Shown here: piece by piece, positions 19,176 through 43,311 of the stretch
Layout of the letters: each line of letters opens with the position of its first letter
How positions within the stretch are numbered: the stretch's first letter is position 1
NCBI RefSeq assembly: GCF_013122565.1
Contig: NZ_CP053258.1
From: Escherichia coli
GTDB lineage: Bacteria; Pseudomonadota; Gammaproteobacteria; Enterobacterales; Enterobacteriaceae
Direction: 5' to 3' (one strand)
DNA length: 64,000 nucleotides
Program-made: the position numbers and the translations under genes
The notes under the pieces: model-generated
Databases searched by the model: none
What the model saw: only the letters and a program-made list of their open reading frames with translations
What the model was told of the DNA's origin: nothing

Positions 19176-19392
19176 GGGCAGAAAGATGAATGACTGTCCA
19201 CGACGCTATACCCAAAAGAAAGCGGCTTATCGGTCAGTTTCACCTGATGTAAGTAAAAACCCGCTTCGGCGGGTTTTTGCTTTTGGAGGGGCAGAAAGAT
19301 GAATGACTGTCCACGACACTATACCCAAAAGAAAGCGGCTTATCGGTCAGTTTCACCTGATGTACGTAATAAACCGTTCCGGCGGGTTTCAG
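19176..19392 (+). repeat. Two tandem ~113-bp direct repeats duplicating the rnpB 3' end and terminator
   Basis: GGCAGAAAGATGAATGACTGTCCACGAC...GGTCAGTTTCACCTGATGTA.GTAA.AACCCG.TTCGGCGGGTTT occurs twice after the genuine rnpB 3' end. Confidence 0.8.
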
Positions 19393-19413
19393 ATTGTTGA
19401 GTGCGCTTTATTC

Positions 19414-19513
19414 ATGCCGGATGCGGCGTGAACGCCTTATCCTGACTACAAAAGCACGCAAATTCAATATATTGCAGAGATGGCGTAGGCCTGATAAGCG
19501 TAGCGCATCAGGC
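19414..19513. repeat. REP/BIME element
   Basis: GCCGGATGCGGCGTGAACGCCTTATCC and AGGCCTGATAAGCGTAGCGCATCAGGC palindromic units. Confidence 0.75.
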
Positions 19514-19628
19514 ATTTTTGCGGTTGCCATCAGTTTCAAACCCGCATCGATAAGTTTTTGCTTTTGGTGCACAGGGTAAGATGAATATCTACGGTATTAA
19601 TAATAGACTTTGTAAGAAGTTATTAAGT

Positions 19629-32578: not shown

Positions 32579-33889
32579 ATGTTTGATTCGACTTTAAATC
32601 CGTTATGGCAGCGTTACATCCTCGCCGTTCAGGAGGAAGTAAAACCGGCGCTGGGATGTACTGAACCGATTTCACTGGCGCTGGCGGCGGCGGTTGCTGC
32701 GGCAGAACTGGAAGGTCCGGTTGAACGTGTAGAAGCCTGGGTTTCGCCAAATCTGATGAAGAACGGTCTGGGCGTCACCGTTCCCGGCACGGGAATGGTG
32801 GGGCTGCCGATTGCGGCGGCGCTGGGGGCGTTAGGTGGAAATGCTAACGCCGGGCTGGAAGTGCTGAAAGACGCAACAGCGCAGGCAATTGCCGATGCCA
32901 AAGCACTGCTGGCGGCGGGGAAAGTCTCAGTTAAGATCCAGGAACCTTGCGATGAAATCCTCTTCTCACGCGCCAAAGTCTGGAACGGTGAGAAGTGGGC
33001 GTGTGTCACCATCGTCGGTGGGCATACCAACATTGTGCATATTGAGACGCACAATGGTGTGGTGTTTACCCAGCAGGCGTGTGTGGCAGAGGGCGAGCAA
33101 GAGTCTCCGCTGACGGTGCTTTCCAGAACGACGCTGGCTGAGATCCTGAAGTTCGTCAATGAAGTCCCGTTTGCGGCGATCCGCTTTATTCTCGATTCCG
33201 CGAAGCTAAATTGCGCGTTATCGCAGGAAGGTTTGAGTGGTAACTGGGGGCTGCATATTGGTGCGACGCTGGAAAAACAGTGCGAGCGCGGTTTGCTGGC
33301 GAAAGATCTCTCTTCATCCATTGTGATTCGTACCAGCGCGGCATCCGATGCGCGTATGGGCGGCGCCACGCTTCCGGCAATGAGTAACTCCGGCTCGGGT
33401 AACCAGGGGATCACCGCAACAATGCCCGTGGTGGTGGTAGCAGAACACTTCGGAGCGGATGATGAACGGCTGGCGCGTGCGCTGATGCTTTCGCATTTGA
33501 GCGCAATTTACATCCATAACCAGTTACCGCGTTTGTCTGCGCTGTGTGCCGCAACGACCGCAGCAATGGGGGCCGCCGCCGGGATGGCATGGCTGGTGGA
33601 TGGGCGTTATGAAACCATCTCGATGGCGATCAGCAGTATGATCGGCGATGTCAGCGGCATGATTTGCGATGGTGCGTCGAACAGCTGCGCGATGAAGGTT
33701 TCGACCAGTGCTTCGGCTGCGTGGAAAGCGGTATTAATGGCGCTGGATGATACCGCCGTGACCGGCAATGAAGGGATCGTGGCGCATGATGTTGAGCAGT
33801 CGATTGCCAACCTGTGTGCGTTAGCAAGCCATTCGATGCAGCAAACCGATCGGCAGATTATCGAGATTATGGCGAGCAAGGCCAGATAA
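32579..33889 (+). CDS. yhaM: UPF0597-family protein YhaM (putative cysteine desulfidase, 436 aa)
   Basis: 436-aa [41 protein letters not shown]... Confidence 0.85.
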
Positions 33890-33908
33890 ACGCCAGGTTT
33901 TGAGTATT

Positions 33909-34172
<264 letters not shown>

Positions 34173-34177
34173 TGTCT

Positions 34178-34342
34178 TTACGCGGTAGCTTCATCCTCGG
34201 CTAAACGCGTTTCGGCATCCGCGACGATGGCTTCCAGCTCGCTCAACATCTCTTCATAGCCAAAATTTTTGGCGGTGCGAGCAGGTTCTTTCGCCACCAC
34301 GGGCTTCACTGGCTGACGCTTTTTGGCCGATTTTTTACTCAT
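34178..34342 (-). CDS. yhaL: Small protein YhaL (54 aa)
   Basis: Minus-strand ORF MSKKSAKKRQPVKPVVAKEPARTAKNFGYEEMLSELEAIVADAETRLAEDEATA; not in the ORF track (under 60 aa). Confidence 0.6.
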   Translation of the reverse strand: MSKKSAKKRQPVKPVVAKEPARTAKNFGYEEMLSELEAIVADAETRLAEDEATA

Positions 34343-34364
34343 CATCATCTCCCTGTTAAAACAA

Positions 34365-35066
34365 CTAGACAGGCAAATCTATCAGCAAAGCGCGCAGTGG
34401 GGAATCGGCAACCAGCGTAATGTTAGCCTCGTCACGAATAAACGCCCCATCACCGCAGGTTAGCGCCGCTTTCTCTTCATGATGCGTAAGCGCATGAAAT
34501 TTCCCGTGAATCGATTGCAAATACGCGCGTGGCCCATGCAACTGGAAATTCGCACTTTCGCCTTTGTCGAGCACGATATGGTGCAGCCACACTTGTTGGC
34601 GTAATTGCAGGCTTCCCATCGCACCCTCTGGCGAGGCGATCAATTGCTGTTTGTCCATATTAAGCGCCAGCTTTTGAATCAGCGGATTCTCTCGCTGCGG
34701 GCAGGCATCTAGCCAAAGCTGCATTCGCGTTAACGGTTTGTCTTTGCTGAGATTGTGTTCGCTATAGCTGACACCCGGCTGGGTAGAGAGCAGCAACGCC
34801 TCACCGGCGCTCGCCTGAACATGATTGCCTTCGCTGTCGCGATACTCTGCTTCTCCATCCAGAATCACATTTAAAATATCGACTTTGGGATAGGTTCGCG
34901 GCTGAAAGGCAGCACCTGGGGCCAGCACTTCCTGGTTCAGCACGCGCAGGGAGGCATAGCCTAACAATTTCGGGTCGAAGTAGTGTCCAAAGGAAAAAGT
35001 ATACCGGGCCTGCAACCATCCGTAGTCTGCTTGTCCACACTGCCTGGCAGTTCGGGTAGTAATCAT
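34365..35066 (-). CDS. yhaK: Pirin-like cupin protein YhaK (233 aa)
   Basis: 233-aa ORF, pirin/cupin family; divergent from yhaJ. Confidence 0.85.
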   Translation of the reverse strand: MITTRTARQCGQADYGWLQARYTFSFGHYFDPKLLGYASLRVLNQEVLAPGAAFQPRTYPKVDILNVILDGEAEYRDSEGNHVQASAGEALLLSTQPGVSYSEHNLSKDKPLTRMQLWLDACPQRENPLIQKLALNMDKQQLIASPEGAMGSLQLRQQVWLHHIVLDKGESANFQLHGPRAYLQSIHGKFHALTHHEEKAALTCGDGAFIRDEANITLVADSPLRALLIDLPV

Positions 35067-35170
35067 AATTCTTGACCTCTCTTTACTTCCTTTTATGGTA
35101 AGGGGCTGGACGCTACATTGTTAGCCAGATATTCTGCCCGGTATGTTCAAATTTCCTGAATGAGAACGAA

Positions 35171-36067
35171 ATGGCCAAAGAAAGGGCATTAACGCTGGAA
35201 GCACTACGGGTTATGGATGCGATCGATCGCCGGGGCAGTTTTGCGGCGGCGGCGGATGAGCTGGGACGCGTGCCTTCCGCACTTAGCTACACCATGCAAA
35301 AACTGGAAGAAGAGCTGGATGTGGTGCTGTTTGACCGCTCGGGCCATCGCACCAAATTCACCAATGTCGGGAGGATGTTGCTGGAGCGAGGGCGCGTTTT
35401 GCTGGAAGCCGCAGATAAACTGACTACCGATGCGGAAGCTCTCGCGCGCGGTTGGGAAACGCATCTCACCATTGTGACCGAAGCGCTGGTACCGACACCT
35501 GCCTTTTTCCCGTTAATTGACAAACTGGCGGCAAAAGCCAATACCCAACTGGCAGTCATCACCGAAGTGCTGGCGGGGGCATGGGAACGGCTGGAGCAGG
35601 GGCGGGCGGATATTGTTATCGCGCCGGATATGCATTTTCGCTCCTCGTCGGAGATCAACTCGCGCAAGCTCTATACGTTAATGAACGTCTACGTTGCCGC
35701 GCCTGATCACCCGATTCATCAGGAGCCGGAACCGTTATCTGAAGTGACGCGCGTGAAATATCGTGGAATTGCGGTAGCGGATACCGCTCGTGAGCGCCCG
35801 GTGTTGACCGTACAGCTGCTGGACAAACAGCCGCGCTTAACGGTGAGCACGATTGAAGATAAACGTCAGGCATTACTGGCGGGGCTTGGCGTGGCGACGA
35901 TGCCGTATCCGATGGTCGAAAAAGATATTGCGGAAGGGCGGTTGCGTGTCGTCAGCCCGGAATCGACCAGCGAGATCGATATTATTATGGCCTGGCGTCG
36001 TGACAGTATGGGGGAAGCGAAATCCTGGTGTCTGCGGGAAATTCCAAAGTTGTTCGCTGGAAAATAA
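35171..36067 (+). CDS. yhaJ: LysR-type transcriptional regulator YhaJ (298 aa)
   Basis: 298-aa ORF with N-terminal LysR helix-turn-helix. Confidence 0.85.
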   Translation: MAKERALTLEALRVMDAIDRRGSFAAAADELGRVPSALSYTMQKLEEELDVVLFDRSGHRTKFTNVGRMLLERGRVLLEAADKLTTDAEALARGWETHLTIVTEALVPTPAFFPLIDKLAAKANTQLAVITEVLAGAWERLEQGRADIVIAPDMHFRSSSEINSRKLYTLMNVYVAAPDHPIHQEPEPLSEVTRVKYRGIAVADTARERPVLTVQLLDKQPRLTVSTIEDKRQALLAGLGVATMPYPMVEKDIAEGRLRVVSPESTSEIDIIMAWRRDSMGEAKSWCLREIPKLFAGK

Positions 36068-36100
36068 TCGATTAAGCACCTTTCACAAGGTGCTTAATTA

Positions 36101-36469
36101 TTATTCCTGTTCCAGTTTTGGATCAGGTCCAAAGCGGTTTTCGCCTGGCGTACCCGCCTGGCAGTTAAAGACGATGATAATAAGCCAGCCGATAAACGGG
36201 ATTAAGAACAGCAGTGCCCACCACGCCGAGCGGTCGGTGTCGTGCAGGCGGCGGAACTGAACCGCCCACCACGGTAAAAACACCAGAATACCGTAGATTG
36301 TCGTCAGGATGCCTTCGCCACCAGCGCGTTGCCAGCCTAACATTTTATCCAGCAGCCCCAACACGAACGTGAAGATGATGTTGACCAGAATAAACATCCA
36401 GTACTCTTTGCGCCGCGCACGACCCCGGAAACCGACATAATTTTTTAGTACTTTCAGATACCAGTCCAT
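36101..36469 (-). CDS. DUF805 inner-membrane protein (YhaH/YhaI family, about 122 aa)
   Basis: MDWYLKVLKNYVGFRGRARRKEYWMF... DUF805 signature with three predicted transmembrane helices; only one paralogue is present at this locus. Confidence 0.7.
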   Translation of the reverse strand: MDWYLKVLKNYVGFRGRARRKEYWMFILVNIIFTFVLGLLDKMLGWQRAGGEGILTTIYGILVFLPWWAVQFRRLHDTDRSAWWALLFLIPFIGWLIIIVFNCQAGTPGENRFGPDPKLEQE

Positions 36470-36597
36470 TTTTGCCTCAATTTTGCTCAATCACTTGTTT
36501 TTAAAGCAGCAAATTAAGAATAGACGTGAATGAAATGGCAGTAAATATTCGCTCAATGAATTAATAAGGTGCTGTGAAGGATAAGGGCAAGCGCAAA

Positions 36598-36700
36598 ATT
36601 GCCAGAAGCGCTACGTTTATCTGGTCTGCGCGGTCATGGCAACATATTGAATATAAATGTTTTGTAGGTTGGAGAAGGCGTTCACGCCGCATCCGACATT
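36598..36700. repeat. REP/BIME element
   Basis: AGGCGTTCACGCCGCATCCGACA plus a degenerate REP at 36601-36628. Confidence 0.65.
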
Positions 36701-36726
36701 AATAACACGCACTTAGCTAATAATCA

Positions 36727-36753
36727 GAGGCACCTCGTAAGGTGCCTTTTTTT
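36727..36753 (+). terminator. Hairpin with T7 tract at the 3' end of yqjG (convergent/bidirectional terminator)
   Basis: GAGGCACCTCGTAAGGTGCCTTTTTTT; the T-tract overlaps the yqjG stop. Confidence 0.5.
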
Positions 36754-37738
36754 AACCGAAGCGAACATCTCTTCCATGCGGTTCATCGAGATCCTGCCAC
36801 GGACCAATTGAAATAATCCCCGTAGGGTTGATGGTCTTATGGCTGCGGAAGTAATGATTACGGATGTGATCGAAATTGACTGTTTCGGCAATTCCCGGCA
36901 TCTGGTAGATATCACGCAGGAAGCCATACAGATTAAGGTAATCGCTGATGCGGTGCTTATCACACTTGAAGTGGGTCACATACACTGGATCAAAACGGAC
37001 CAGCGTGGTCCACAGGCGAATATCGGCTTCGGTTAGCTGGTTGCCGGTCAGGTAACGATGCTGACCTAAAATCTGCTCCAGTCGCGCCAGCGATTCAAAC
37101 ACTTTCTCCACCGCTTCGTCGTAGGCTTGCTGGCTGGTGGCAAAACCAGCTTTATACACGCCGTTGTTAACGGTGTCATAAATCCAGCCGTTAAGTTCGT
37201 CAATTTTCGTTTGCAGGGCTGGTGGGTAGTAATCACCCGCTTTCGCGCCCAGCGCATCAAACGCGGTATTAAACATGCGGATGATTTCTGCTGATTCGTT
37301 GCTGACGATGGTGTGGTTCTTTTTGTCCCACAGCACGGGCACAGTAACTCGTCCGCTGTAGTGTGGATCGGCGTGGAGATAAAGCTGATACAGAAATTCA
37401 TGTTGATAGAGCGTGTCTCCGGTTGCTCCCGGAAAACTGTCATCAAAGGTCCAGCCGTTTTCAAGCATCAGCGGGTTCACTACAGAAACGGAAATAAAGG
37501 GTTCCAGTCCTTTGAGTTTGCGCATGATCAGCGTGCGGTGCGCCCACGGGCAGGCGAGTGAAACATAGAGATGATAACGATCTTTCTCTGCGATAAAACC
37601 GCCTGTGCCAGTGGGGCCAGGAGCGCCATCGGCAGTGAGCCAGTTACGAAATGCGGAAGCTGAACGTTGAAATTTACCGCCGGTAGATTTGGTATCGTAC
37701 CAGGTGTCATGCCAGACGCCGTCAATCAGTTGACCCAT
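36752..37738 (-). CDS. yqjG: Glutathionyl-hydroquinone reductase (Xi-class GST, 328 aa)
   Basis: MGQLIDGVWHDTWYDTKSTGGKFQRSASAFRNW... with the CPWA active-site motif. Confidence 0.88.
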   Translation of the reverse strand: MGQLIDGVWHDTWYDTKSTGGKFQRSASAFRNWLTADGAPGPTGTGGFIAEKDRYHLYVSLACPWAHRTLIMRKLKGLEPFISVSVVNPLMLENGWTFDDSFPGATGDTLYQHEFLYQLYLHADPHYSGRVTVPVLWDKKNHTIVSNESAEIIRMFNTAFDALGAKAGDYYPPALQTKIDELNGWIYDTVNNGVYKAGFATSQQAYDEAVEKVFESLARLEQILGQHRYLTGNQLTEADIRLWTTLVRFDPVYVTHFKCDKHRISDYLNLYGFLRDIYQMPGIAETVNFDHIRNHYFRSHKTINPTGIISIGPWQDLDEPHGRDVRFG

Positions 37739-37809
37739 TTTTCTCTCCTCCAATAGCAAAAACGAGGAGCGTTTCTCCTCGTTTTAAAATTGCTGGCAAA
37801 CGAAAAACT

Positions 37810-37908
37810 GCCTGATGCGCTATGCTTTTCAGGCCTACGAGGTTTCTGCAATATATTGAATTTGCATGCTTTTGTAGGCCGGATAAGGCGTTCACGCCGC
37901 ATCCGGCA
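37810..37908. repeat. REP/BIME element
   Basis: GCCTGATGCGCTATGCTTTTCAGGC and GGCCGGATAAGGCGTTCACGCCGCATCCGGC. Confidence 0.75.
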
Positions 37909-37985
37909 TGAACAACGCGCACTTTGTCAACAATCTGAAACGAGGAGCTTCCTCCTCGTTTTTTATCGTTAAGTATAGCGCGTGC

Positions 37986-38378
37986 TTACCACTTTTTATT
38001 CAGCAGGCGGTCGATGCTATACGCGCCCGGACCGGTAATTGCCAGCAGCAGGAATCCGCCAGAAATTGTCAGGTTTTTCATGAACATCAGCGAGTTGACG
38101 CCTTCAGCAAAGTTGCTGTGAAATAAAAATGCCGTCAGCAGCGTAAAGCCCGCAGTAAACAGGGCTGTGGTGCGAGTCAGGAAACCGAACAGGACTGCCA
38201 GACCACCACCGAACTCAAGCAGAATCACCAGCGGCAGCATAAAACCCGGGACGCCCATCGCTTCCATATATTGTTGGGTACCCGCGTAGCCAGTAATTTT
38301 TCCCCAGCCTGCGGTAATAAACAGAATCGGCATTAAAATGCGCGCTACCAGTACACCAACATCTTCTAATTTTTTCAT
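37986..38378 (-). CDS. yqjF: DoxX-family inner membrane protein YqjF (130 aa)
   Basis: ORF 37986-38468 with likely start MKKLEDVGVLVARILMPILF. Confidence 0.8.
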   Translation of the reverse strand: MKKLEDVGVLVARILMPILFITAGWGKITGYAGTQQYMEAMGVPGFMLPLVILLEFGGGLAVLFGFLTRTTALFTAGFTLLTAFLFHSNFAEGVNSLMFMKNLTISGGFLLLAITGPGAYSIDRLLNKKW

Positions 38379-38564
38379 CATACTCTCCACTGCGCCACTC
38401 AGGCTGCTGATTGTTTTTTTGTGCAAGGGCGCGGTATTAGCGTCGTTGCTGTCGATGGAGAGAATCATAAACGTGGTGAATGATGATTGTTAGCAAGGAA
38501 AACTGTCAAAAATCTTCAAAAAATTTGAGGTATAAGGCCGGAATGGCTCCGGCCAGAAAGGAAG

Positions 38565-38864
38565 TTAACCGCGAAGCTGTTGCTGCTTGAGGGTCGTTTT
38601 CACCAGACGCCAGGCGCTCCATACGCCAAAACCGCGTCTGGCCCAGCGGACCAGCATATTAGGATGGCGAATCGTCCAGATCGCCATCACACTACTGCCA
38701 ACCAGCGCCCAGGAGCGCAGACTTAGCAGCATATTCCAGCGACGATCGTAAGCGCCTGTTGCCTCCAGCCATTCACGACGACTGGCAGAAAGATCCAGCC
38801 GTTGTTGCTGGATCTGGCTAAGCAGTTGCGCCTTACGTCGTTCACGTTCGACTTTACTGCTCAC
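38565..38864 (-). CDS. yqjK: Small protein YqjK (99 aa, probable GTG start)
   Basis: SSKVERERRKAQLLSQIQQQRLDLSASRREWLEA...; overlaps the yqjE 3' end. Confidence 0.65.
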   Translation of the reverse strand: MSSKVERERRKAQLLSQIQQQRLDLSASRREWLEATGAYDRRWNMLLSLRSWALVGSSVMAIWTIRHPNMLVRWARRGFGVWSAWRLVKTTLKQQQLRG

Positions 38865-39258
38865 GGGACTCCTCCTCGAGCAGCTGCCGATCGTTTGCCA
38901 GCTCATGGCGTGTATGGCGCAGCAAGGTGGATTTACGCGATTTACGTAGCGTCCAGATACCGCCAATCAGTGCCAGTAGCAGCAACACCACGGTGGTGGC
39001 AATCATCGCATTCAGGCGATATTGCGGATCAACCGCCCAAATAATTAGCACCATCAGGCTCATAAGACCAAATGCAGCGAAAAGCATCGTCAGGCCCAGC
39101 ATCAGTAAAAGTTGAAAGAGATTAGCTTTTTCCTCTTCCAGCTCCACCACCGCCAGCCGCAGACGTGTTTCCACCATTTCAACCATGATGGAAACAATTC
39201 GCTGCCCGATGCCCAGAACGCTTTTACCGGGCCCTTGCGCGTGATGAGTGTCCGCCAT
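38854..39258 (-). CDS. yqjE: Inner membrane protein YqjE (134 aa)
   Basis: MADTHHAQGPGKSVLGIGQRIVSIMVEMVETRL..., two transmembrane helices. Confidence 0.8.
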   Translation of the reverse strand: MADTHHAQGPGKSVLGIGQRIVSIMVEMVETRLRLAVVELEEEKANLFQLLLMLGLTMLFAAFGLMSLMVLIIWAVDPQYRLNAMIATTVVLLLLALIGGIWTLRKSRKSTLLRHTRHELANDRQLLEEESREQ

Positions 39259-39260
39259 AA

Positions 39261-39566
39261 TTAACGACGCGACAGCAGAACGCCGAGCACTACACCGATT
39301 GCAGCGCCAATGCCCACGCCCGTCCATGGATTTTCACGCACATACTCATCGGCACGCGCCGCCGCGACACGGGTTTGTTTGGCGATGGCATCACCGGTTT
39401 CACCCAGGCGATAACGGCTCTGTTTCAGTGCCTGCTCCGCTTTGCTACGAATCTTACTCAACTCTTCTTTCGACTTCTCGCCAGATGAGCTAAGCACCTC
39501 TTCCAGCGTATCGGAAAGGGATTTCAACTCAGCACGCAGATGTTCCGTAGTGTGTTCTTTCGACAT
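39261..39566 (-). CDS. yqjD: Ribosome-associated membrane protein YqjD (101 aa)
   Basis: MSKEHTTEHLRAELKSLSDTLEEVL... with a C-terminal transmembrane helix (DUF883). Confidence 0.85.
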   Translation of the reverse strand: MSKEHTTEHLRAELKSLSDTLEEVLSSSGEKSKEELSKIRSKAEQALKQSRYRLGETGDAIAKQTRVAAARADEYVRENPWTGVGIGAAIGVVLGVLLSRR

Positions 39567-39603
39567 AGTTTTCTCCAAGTGAGTAAGTAGTGACTATTGT
39601 GAG

Positions 39604-39972
39604 TTAGTAGTCGCGCGCTTCCAGCTTTTTCAGCTCTTCCTGCGCTTCTGCCAGTTTCCGTTCGCGTTTGGCAATCTTATCGGCATCGCCTTTTTGCTTC
39701 GCCTCGGCTAAATCTTGCTGGCGTTCCGCCACCTCATCTTTCTGCTTTGCGATTTTCTTCTGATGATCGGCACGCAGCTGGCTATCTGAACAGTTGGCCC
39801 GGACTTCACTCAGGGCTTTATTCAGACCGTCAATACGATTCTGGTTTTGGTGTTTTTCGGCATAGCTGATTTCCTTAAGGATATTTTGCTCCTTTTCCTG
39901 ACACAGGGTAGTGGCATAACTACCGGCACTAAGAGCAAAAAGAGAAACAGCTAAAGCGATGCGGTATTTCAT
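39604..39972 (-). CDS. yqjC: Periplasmic protein YqjC (122 aa)
   Basis: MKYRIALAVSLFALSAGSYA signal peptide followed by a charged coiled-coil region. Confidence 0.8.
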   Translation of the reverse strand: MKYRIALAVSLFALSAGSYATTLCQEKEQNILKEISYAEKHQNQNRIDGLNKALSEVRANCSDSQLRADHQKKIAKQKDEVAERQQDLAEAKQKGDADKIAKRERKLAEAQEELKKLEARDY

Positions 39973-40118
39973 TCTTGAACCTTCCATTGTGATTCGGACC
40001 TATTACAAAGGAACGATTGTCCAGACAACGAAGCGGTAGTGTTAACCACCGCCTCATTAATCATAGACAGTTACGGTGAAATCACCAAAGTGAGTGATCT
40101 GTTTCGGATAACAGGAAG

Positions 40119-40502
40119 TTATCCGAAGCGATGAGAGTTATCCCGTAGCCGGGTCAGCCACTGCATAGCCTGACTGTTATTGTCCTGCTGCGCAATGATG
40201 TAGCCTTGGGGCAATGTTCTGTCGAGGACCGCTTTTGCAGCGGCGCTCTGGTCGCTGGAGTCAAAGGTAATTAACAGAGTGTCGTTTTTGGGGGTGATAC
40301 TTTTGAAAGGAATGCCATGAGCGTCAAGGTGATGCCAGATTGAAAAACCGTCTGGCATCGTTGTGCCTTGATGAACGGCACGAATCGCCAGCGTAGACTC
40401 TTGCTGGCGAACCGCGGACCAGGCTAGCAACAGCGTGCCGACCAGAAGTAAAACAGCGCCGGACCAGGCTAGCTGGCGAAGCGACATGCGAGGTATTTGC
40501 AT
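40119..40502 (-). CDS. mzrA: Modulator of EnvZ/OmpR, MzrA (127 aa)
   Basis: [34 protein letters not shown]... single transmembrane helix plus periplasmic domain. Confidence 0.82.
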
Positions 40503-40505
40503 CCC

Positions 40506-41168
40506 TTACCCCCGATTTCCATATTTCTTTTTCCATAACACGACCAGAGAACCTGCCAGGCCAAACACCAGCAGCACCACCGGGAGCAGCATCAGGCATG
40601 ACATCAGCTGGTCCTCGTACTTTAAAAATACCGGCGTTTTGCCGAGCATGTAACCCAGAGTTGTCAGGATCAATACCCACAGCAGACCGCTCATCCAGTT
40701 GAAGAACTGAAAGCGCGCGTTATTCAGCCCTGATAACCCGGCAATCGTCGGCAGCAGTGTTCTGACAAACGCAATAAAGCGACCAATTAACAGCGCCGAT
40801 AAACCGTGTTTATGAAAAAGATGGTGTGCGCGTTGATGATAATGCGCGGGTAAATGAGATAGCCAGTTTTGTACGGTGCGGGTATTGCCCAGCCATCGCC
40901 CCTGAATATAGCTGACCCAGCAACCGAGGCTGGCGGCAACGGTCAGCAGCAGAATCGTTTGCGGGTAACCCATCGCGCCTTTCGCAATCAATACGCCGAC
41001 CAATACCAGTAAACTGTCGCCCGGTAAAAAGGCCGCCGGAAGCAAGCCGTTTTCAAGGAACAAAATTACAAACAAGACAAAATACAACATGCCAATCATC
41101 GATGGATTGGCCAGGGTTTCAAAATCCTGCGCCCACAGGGCTTGCAGCAATTGGGTCAAAAGTTCCAT
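40506..41168 (-). CDS. yqjA: DedA-family inner membrane protein YqjA (220 aa)
   Basis: 220-aa ORF with the DedA/SNARE-associated motif [17 protein letters not shown]. Confidence 0.88.
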
Positions 41169-41512
41169 TCATTATTCCTGGTGAATCGGTTAACGCCACG
41201 CTGGTTTTAAAAGATGCACTACCGCAATGTTATTGCTGTTTTGGTATGTTCTGCGGGTTTGATACATCAACACAGCCTGAACTATTCCCTGTTAAATCGT
41301 GAGATAAGAAAGCATTCAAAAGCATAAATTCAAATTGAATCTAATTGTAACAAAGGTCAACGTTGTTCGTTATCAAAATTACATGTCCGTGGAGTCTGAT
41401 TTTGCTGAATGCAGGGGAGGGTGGCGAGAGGATTTACACAGGCTGACACTTTATACTTTTCGCTTACCGACGAGACAAACAGGCGCATTGCAGCGCCTGT
41501 CGGACAGGAATT

Positions 41513-42289
41513 TCATTTACTGCCGCTGGTGGCTGTATCGAGATGCACCACCGGGTTTTCGGCGAATAGATAGCGGTCGGCATTGAACTCGAAGTCGTCG
41601 CTGGTTTCGTTAAATAACATGATCTTGGTGTTTTCCAGGTGCTGCCACATTGCCAGCTTAGCAGCATGAGGATCTTTGCGAATCAGCGCCTTGAGGATTT
41701 GATCGTGGTCATCACACCAGTTATCGACGGTACGGGAATCAATGTGTTCATGCAGTTTTTTCCAGTACGGGTTATGACTACGCTGGGTCCACATTTTTTC
41801 AACGATGGCCGCCAGGGCGGAGTTCTGCGTTGCCAGAGCTACCTGAATGTGGAACTGCAAATCCCACTCGGAATCACGGAAACATTGTTCGCCGCGCGCC
41901 TGCTCCTGAATGGCCATCAGTTTCATGATGTCCTGTTTCGTCACCTGAGTTGCCGCGAACTCGGCAATATTACTTTCGATAAGCTGGCGAGCCTGGAGCA
42001 ACTCAAACGGACCGTAATTGGCGAATTCCATATTATTGTCCGCCGCCTGCTGATGGCGCGGCTGGTTGGAAACTACATGAATACCTGAACCTTTACGCAC
42101 CTCCACATAGCCTTCAACTTCCAGCATGATGATGGCTTCACGAACTACTGTACGGCTGACATTCTTTTCATCGGCAATAAAGCGTTCGGCAGGTAGTTTA
42201 TCACCCACCAGATAGACGCCCTGTTCGATGCGCTCTTTCAGGTCAGCGGCAAGTTGTTGATACAAACGGCGTGGTTCAGTGATTTCCAT
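41513..42289 (-). CDS. exuR: GntR/FadR-family hexuronate regulon repressor (258 aa)
   Basis: 258-aa ORF with N-terminal GntR helix-turn-helix and FadR-type C-terminal domain. Confidence 0.88.
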
Positions 42290-42583
42290 ATGCGTCTCCC
42301 GGAGTGGAATGCGGTCGAAGTTATCATACCACTTTATTTATGGGTATGCCATGGGGGGGGTTATTACTGGTATTTATATAAAGTTAATACATATATGTAA
42401 TTTGTATCTTTATAAATTCCTAATTTTTAGCACCTTCCATTGATGGATTTCATATTTTTCAGTAGGTTAAGAGCTGTTCTGTTAAATATAATTTATATCA
42501 TCAATAGATTATTGTTTTGACATTTGCCCCCTCAATCAATTTAATGCACGCATTCGGTAACTTTCGTAAAAGAAAATATCATT

Positions 42584-43285
42584 GTGAAATGCATAAAAGT
42601 TCCATTTATCCTGGCGTGTATTCTTTTTTTCTGGTCAATACCAGGACAAGCAAATATGACGGTCTATCCTATGGCGGTTTCAATTAACAGCCAGGGGGAA
42701 GGAAGTGTTCGCGTAATATCTAAAAGCAATGAAGTTCAATATATAAAAGCGACAGTATTTCGTATTGACAATCCTTCAACACCTCAAGAGCAGGAAGTTG
42801 AAATAAAATCCGGAGATGCTACTCATCTGGTAGTGATGCCGCCTAAGTTCGCGCTGCCAGCGGGTAGCAGTAAGACTGTGCGCTTTGTTGCAATGGAACC
42901 GGAGCAAAAAGAAAAAAATTATCGCGTTAAATTTGAAGCGGTTCCCAGTATTGATGATGTTGCCACGGATAAAAAAGATCTCTCTATGCAGTTAACAGTT
43001 AATTTAATTTGGGGCATCGTTGTTAGCGTCCCCCCACAGGATCCTGTTATTGCTTTAAAAACGAATTCCCGCGGTGAGTTACTTAACGATGGGAATCAGC
43101 GAGTAAAAATTCTTACTGTTGATTACTGTAATTCCGCTTCCTGTAAAACACAGACGGTAAACAAAAATCTCTTTCCAGGACAAGTAAGAACGTTAGACGG
43201 CATATCTGGCTACAATAAAATTGTGGTCAAATATAATAACTGGATCACTAAAGACAACGGTGAAGTTGAACTAGTAATTCATTAA
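42584..43285 (+). CDS. Class 5 (CFA/I-CS1 type) fimbrial periplasmic chaperone, CfaA/CooB-like (233 aa, GTG start)
   Basis: Signal peptide MKCIKVPFILACILFFWSIPGQA; mature region (TVYPMAVSIN...SVRVISKSNEVQYIKATVF...LPAGSSKTVRF...YRVKFEAV) aligns with recalled CfaA motifs. Confidence 0.75.
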   Translation: MKCIKVPFILACILFFWSIPGQANMTVYPMAVSINSQGEGSVRVISKSNEVQYIKATVFRIDNPSTPQEQEVEIKSGDATHLVVMPPKFALPAGSSKTVRFVAMEPEQKEKNYRVKFEAVPSIDDVATDKKDLSMQLTVNLIWGIVVSVPPQDPVIALKTNSRGELLNDGNQRVKILTVDYCNSASCKTQTVNKNLFPGQVRTLDGISGYNKIVVKYNNWITKDNGEVELVIH

Positions 43286-43311
43286 TGTGTTTTTTAAATA
43301 AAGGAATAGTA

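Follow-up and report, generated by a model that had tools for sequence, protein, structure and literature searches.

The window analysed here, a 64-kb stretch of Escherichia coli DNA, carries only one DUF805 gene in the interval between yhaJ and yqjG, as seen in both the ORF listing and the sequence (Table 1). A first-pass annotation had described a single ~122-aa DUF805 ORF 33 nt from the yhaJ stop, followed by a REP-containing gap before yqjG. The ORF listing agrees with the former, and a REP consensus match at 36664-36694 (3 mismatches in 31 positions, 0 expected by chance) agrees with the latter. Against the Pfam profile PF05656 the ORF scores 120.8 bits (cut-off 25.7) and aligns to all 111 profile positions, which places it in DUF805. 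The program-made ORF list runs the gene further upstream, to a TTG at 36490. A GAGG ribosome-binding site (36475-36478) lies 5 nt upstream of the ATG given in Table 1. The proteins on both sides, YhaJ and YqjG, are each 99% identical to their K-12 counterparts. The last ~17 nt of yhaJ (CCAAAGTTGTTCGCTGG) are unlike those of the K-12 and B2 types and the same as those of Escherichia E69 and E1V33. The spacer between yhaH and yqjG measures 282 nt (36470-36751).

Table 1 Features of the yhaK-yqjG region, in window coordinates.
Feature	Position	Strand	Basis and remarks
yhaK	34365-35066	-	ORF listing
yhaJ, LysR-type regulator, 298 aa	35171-36067	+	ORF; Pfam HTH_1 and LysR_substrate; convergent with yhaH
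yhaJ/yhaH spacer, 33 nt, one hairpin	36068-36100	.	Sequence, terminator scan
yhaH, DUF805 inner-membrane protein gene, 122 aa	36101-36469	-	Stop 36101-36103, ATG 36467-36469; product ends ...PDPKLEQE
yhaH 5′ UTR and promoter region	36470-36585	-	Alignment to K-12
Degenerate BIME-like REP pair in the yhaH-yqjG spacer	36586-36728	.	REP consensus, BIME identity, K-12 alignment
yqjG terminator hairpin (AGGCACCTTACGAGGTGCCT)	36728-36747	-	Terminator scan; same sequence in K-12
yqjG, glutathionyl-hydroquinone reductase, 328 aa	36752-37738	-	ORF; GST_N_2 and GST_C_2 domains; yqjF beyond

K-12 carries two adjacent DUF805 genes at this locus, in the order yqjG-yhaH (b3103)-yhaI (b3104)-yhaJ in NC_000913.3, as the first-pass annotation had stated, and alignment to K-12 identifies the paralogue that it had reported as absent as yhaI. 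Searching the whole 64 kb by tblastn with YhaI and YhaH returned no second DUF805 gene. The sole tblastn match to YhaI is a 56% paralogous match to yhaH, below the identity of at least ~77% that is seen among E. coli alleles and that defined yhaI-type sequence here, and no YhaI orthologue was found within the 64 kb. Likewise, neither tblastn nor blastn (word sizes 7 and 11) detected a remnant of the 654-bp K-12 yhaI segment anywhere in the window.

The gene that is present corresponds to yhaH. BLASTP aligned the window protein to K-12 YhaH over 120 residues, all 120 of them identical, and to K-12 YhaI at 56% identity. The sole protein difference from K-12 YhaH lies at the C-terminal end, where the window reads LEQE* (122 aa) and K-12 reads LEP* (121 aa). 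The complete protein is 100% identical to WP_001314179.1 (122 aa; found in XJ5.2 and AH21B066) and clusters with Escherichia YhaH in an NJ tree. Synteny with K-12 is unbroken from yqjG through the REP spacer into yhaH up to codon 120, in keeping with a YhaH orthologue. Judged by these alignments, the gene is an intact yhaH and not a chimera. The first-pass annotation had suggested a paralogue fusion. One chimeric gene could be left by unequal crossing-over where yhaH and yhaI resemble each other at their 5′ ends; the first ~100 nt of the two genes, about 79-85% identical, could indeed have served as a recombination substrate. However, the product matches YhaH at 120/120 positions without any YhaI-like stretch, BLASTP against the two paralogues finds no switch from YhaH to YhaI along the ORF, and the hairpin downstream of the window yhaH is unlike the yhaI terminator (GGGGCGAAATATCGCCCC), so that a fusion is almost certainly not what the window contains. 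A collapse of two paralogues into one during assembly is equally hard to credit: the paralogues are too divergent (56% amino-acid identity, and below 80% nucleotide identity over only ~100 nt), and the same one-gene junction recurs in other species as well as in ~1,012 complete genomes.

Alignment to K-12 and four other E. coli places the difference between the two arrangements at the yhaJ/yhaH junction, where homology to K-12 stops at yhaH codon 120/121 and restarts at the yhaJ stop codon. Between these points the window has ~40 bp (36068-36107) without a counterpart in the two-gene haplotype, comprising the last two yhaH codons (QE), the stop codon and a hairpin with a 13-bp stem (36070-36099; core AAGCACCTT-tcac-AAGGTGCTT). 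The hairpin was scored as terminator-like on both strands in a terminator scan, and its RNA folds at -18.8 kcal/mol (z -8.5) on the plus strand and -21.4 kcal/mol (z -6.8) on the minus strand; the T-runs are interrupted on both strands (ATTATTATTCC and CGATTATTTTCC). We infer that it is a putative bidirectional intrinsic terminator. The K-12 counterpart of this junction is 654 bp long with a GC content of 37.3%, compared with 51-55% in the flanking genes. Its components are a different end of yhaH (LEP*) and the terminator belonging to it, 241 bp of spacer DNA (27.8% GC), yhaI (44.8% GC) and a yhaI/yhaJ terminator. Because the two haplotypes have mutually exclusive junction sequences, neither arises from the other by simple deletion.

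The REP elements lie on the opposite side of the gene. Positions 36586-36728 share 73-83% identity with a canonical BIME at 37795-37938, and this inverted, intergenic arrangement identifies them as a REP/BIME element. A match to the REP-derived Rfam family naRNA4 (36667-36708) falls below the gathering score, and an Rfam scan of 35000-38500 gave REP-derived matches only, mostly sub-threshold, and no other RNA gene. The pair is located on the yqjG side of yhaH and has a counterpart in K-12, to which it aligns. As its other suggestion, the first-pass annotation had proposed a REP-associated deletion. Recombination or RAYT-type activity at the REPs would then have removed one paralogue. REP elements do exist in the yhaH-yqjG spacer, and a genuine REP-bounded loss of yhaH in Escherichia sp. 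MOD1-EC7003 shows that such events occur at this locus. The indel, however, lies across yhaH from the REPs, 480 nt away, and the junction at 36068-36107 is a hairpin without any REP. This junction, moreover, contains 40 bp that are missing from the two-gene haplotype, and it is identical in other Escherichia species. Since the REP pair is common to both haplotypes and stands on the other side of yhaH, it has no part in the difference between them, and a deletion of this kind is highly improbable.

REP elements and BIMEs drew attention at several other points. In MOD1-EC7003 (locus L008, 4895-5060), yhaH is deleted, and ~35 nt of its 3′ end stay after the conserved hairpin, joined to the REP of the yhaH-yqjG spacer. 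In E. albertii, E1V33 and SCPM-O-B-8794 (loci L006, L007 and L009, ~4895-5110), the yhaJ/yhaH hairpin occurs twice, around a BIME that is missing in the window and in E69. Within the window, the BIME between yqjG and yqjF (37795-37938) has direct duplicates of a hairpin on its two sides, AAAACGAGGAGCGTTTCTCCTCGTTTT (37760-37786) and GAAACGAGGAGCTTCCTCCTCGTTTTTT (37937-37964). This looks like the insertion of a ~150-bp BIME unit with a 22-27-bp duplication of a local, locus-specific target hairpin. Three tandem ~78-bp REP-containing units and an inverted REP lie between cyuA and yhaL (33905-34170); alignments to K-12 and other Escherichia break there, which suggests copy-number variation. At 19257-19585, a ~50-bp direct repeat (AAACCCGC...GTTTTTGCTTTTGG...AGATGAAT) surrounds a short ORF-like stretch and a BIME, and is presumably the equivalent, to judge from its position, of the repeated units that follow rnpB in K-12.

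As an outgroup set, one genome per species was scanned for YhaJ. The scan returned 80 loci, which include neither E. fergusonii nor Shigella nor the GTDB E. coli representative, and these were annotated by tblastn. A single yhaH-type gene lies between yhaJ and yqjG at ~65 of the 80 loci, all from the Enterobacteriaceae, and none at a few, belonging to Pseudescherichia, Trabulsiella and Escherichia sp. MOD1-EC7003. Besides K-12-type E. coli, two DUF805 genes were found here only in C. sedlakii, Huaxiibacter chinensis and Lelliottia sp. WAP21 among these loci. The window shares 89-92% identity with four non-coli Escherichia lineages (E. albertii and Escherichia sp. E1V33, SCPM-O-B-8794 and E69), each of which encodes a 122-aa YhaH ending in KLEQE. 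The hairpin of the window is also present in each of them and in MOD1-EC7003, and the 33-nt spacer of E69 is identical to that of the window. A single convergent hairpin also separates yhaJ from the yhaH-type gene in Salmonella, Citrobacter and Klebsiella.

In the NJ tree, YhaH tracks species relationships, and E. coli YhaI forms its own clade with a few sporadic relatives, which in the tree are 58-66% identical to it. Relatives at 58-68% identity come from Intestinirhabdus, C. sedlakii, Superficieibacter and a few Citrobacter, and in a database-wide protein search for a yhaI donor the best relatives outside E. coli and Shigella reached 68% identity at most. Less probably, yhaI is an old paralogue that has been lost many times. 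With the same junction in four non-coli Escherichia and one gene in most Enterobacteriaceae, the polarity of the change reads as a gain of yhaI. By parsimony over the sampled genomes, we infer that the one-gene state is ancestral and that yhaI was gained in K-12-like lineages.

We consider it very probable that the window represents the ancestral Escherichia arrangement, in which nothing has been deleted or fused, and that yhaI is a gain in K-12-like lineages. The ancestral locus would have consisted of convergent yhaJ and yhaH genes, 33 nt apart, with one bidirectional terminator-like hairpin between them. In the derived K-12 state, a 654-bp low-GC segment would have displaced the hairpin together with the final two codons of yhaH. 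This segment probably entered by recombination, flanked by the 3′ ends of the two genes yhaH and yhaJ, and the presence and absence of yhaI now segregate at ~81% and 19% in E. coli.

These frequencies were counted in 5,426 complete E. coli genomes, of which 4,380 (80.7%) have the yhaI segment. The one-gene state accounts for ~1,012 (18.7%): 992-993 genomes have a B2-type junction, as in AH21B066, and 20 have the exact window type (e.g. LHM10-1 and XJ5.2). Approximately 33 genomes were assigned to neither state. The B2-type group takes in ATCC 25922 and 83972, both of which we take to belong to phylogroup B2. The first-pass annotation had allowed that its expectation would fail if reference genomes also had a single DUF805 gene here; this is the case for ~19% of complete E. 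coli genomes but not for K-12, which has two. The presence or absence of yhaI is an ordinary gene-content polymorphism that is already annotated in RefSeq. Our literature search found no paper on this polymorphism, and the YhaJ papers that it returned leave yhaH and yhaI unmentioned.

The ancestral-type junction could also have been regained by the lineage of the window. In this scenario, a two-gene ancestor would have lost yhaI secondarily by allelic replacement, the junction being restored through homologous recombination with DNA of a one-gene strain, either B2-type E. coli or another Escherichia lineage. We regard this as less likely. The window-type junction is rare (20/5,426), and the window yhaH body is 98.9% identical to K-12 but 97.0% identical to the B2-type one-gene AH21B066, both the yhaH and yhaJ bodies being nearer to K-12-type than to B2-type alleles. 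The yhaJ 3′ end, by contrast, is as in E69 and E1V33 and not as in K-12. All four combinations of yhaH body and one- or two-gene state exist (represented by the window, AH21B066, K-12 and CUVET21), which shows that recombination has occurred between the yhaH gene body and the indel. Even so, the outcome of such a replacement would still be the ancestral allele, neither a deletion nor a fusion product. All E. coli compared are 97-98% identical to the window, which may simply come from a thinly sampled lineage in which the state was inherited vertically. K-12-like and B2-like yhaH backgrounds share one and the same one-gene junction, and both also occur with the two-gene state, which indicates one origin followed by recombination. 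The window is 98-99% identical to E. coli in yhaJ and yhaH, but across 26000-46000 no complete RefSeq E. coli exceeds ~95% weighted identity, and the lineage seems to be poorly represented or to be filed under another name, such as Shigella.

The yhaI segment is itself variable within E. coli. It falls into classes of at least 99% (2,074 genomes), about 90% (2,024) and 80-90% identity (262), and the allele classes are ~90% identical in nucleotide and 85% in amino-acid sequence. The two major alleles, those of K-12 (locus L001, 5912-6268) and CUVET21-1780 (locus L005, 1119-1475), differ at 57 of 357 nt. Of these differences, 54 are confined to nt 135-308, a 174-nt patch with 31% divergence between nearly identical flanks; overall, 18 codon changes are nonsynonymous and 23 are synonymous. 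Gene conversion from yhaH was considered as the source of the divergent patch and rejected, the patch not being yhaH-like. In some E. coli, such as M159-1 and PRO_A-1496-6W-A_ESBL, yhaI is split by IS1 insertions. Ler, an H-NS antagonist, activates yhaI 36-fold in EHEC (PMC3891560), which fits, circumstantially, an AT-rich, silenced and acquired yhaI. More speculatively, phage pressure could keep the yhaI cassette polymorphic as a small xenogeneic module, with a hypervariable YhaI serving as an alternative receptor or decoy beside YhaH, which phages PhiWec188 and PhiWec190 are reported to need for infection. This proposal would explain the 81/19 split, the two allele classes and the 174-nt mosaic patch, and if it were true, one-gene strains such as that of the window would differ in phage susceptibility; we nevertheless hold it to be quite improbable.

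For yhaH itself, the proximal ~100 nt upstream of the ATG are identical to K-12 in the alignment, and the expression signals therefore appear intact in the window. A promoter consensus scan of 35900-36900 returned nothing at 9/12 matches or better. A candidate yhaH promoter, TTTACT-17-TATTCT, can be placed ~47 nt upstream of the ATG, and a Salmonella yhaH reporter fusion begins at -43 (PMC5137417). The YhaH sequence reads as three hydrophobic segments, and under the positive-inside rule its basic N-terminus, like the RRLHDTDRS loop, probably faces the cytoplasm. To our knowledge, DUF805 proteins have no established biochemical function. Mutants of yhaH are reported to be resistant to PhiWec188 and PhiWec190 and to become infectable again on complementation (bioRxiv 10.1101/2024.11.29.626071). 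From its sequence, the window strain is expected to have a normal YhaH and to lack only the accessory YhaI.

These results correct a K-12-centred expectation of the locus, in that the laboratory reference would represent the derived state, while the window, B2-type E. coli and other Escherichia would retain the ancestral single gene. They also recommend caution in annotation transfer and in pangenome interpretation, with yhaI being accessory and yhaH core, and should be useful for work on YhaH as a phage host factor or on regulation of the YhaJ region across strains.

Among known systems, K-12 yhaH (b3103, NP_417574.1), annotated as a putative inner membrane protein, shares with the window yhaH its position by yqjG, residues 1-120, the promoter-proximal region and the upstream REP pair. 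The two differ in that K-12 yhaH has its own terminator and yhaI as its neighbour, whereas the window yhaH has a hairpin shared with yhaJ. K-12 yhaI (b3104; 118 aa) belongs to the same Pfam family as the window protein and has a similar length and a predicted three-helix layout, yet unlike the window yhaH it lies in a 37% GC segment, falls in a separate, sporadic clade and is highly polymorphic in E. coli. The one-gene haplotype in RefSeq (AH21B066, XJ5.2, LHM10-1, ATCC 25922 and 83972) has the same layout as the window (yhaJ > hairpin < yhaH < yqjG), including the 33-nt spacer and the 122-aa protein WP_001314179.1; its common B2-type version departs from the window by a few SNPs, located in the loop of the hairpin, at the 3′ end of yhaJ and within yhaH. 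Salmonella yhaH (STM3234) is likewise a single DUF805 orthologue between yhaJ and yqjG, 87-90% identical and convergent across a hairpin, although the hairpin sequence and the C-terminal residues differ from those of the window. The SdsR sRNA represses Salmonella yhaH mRNA, a validated target, and the protein is up in stationary phase (PMC5137417).
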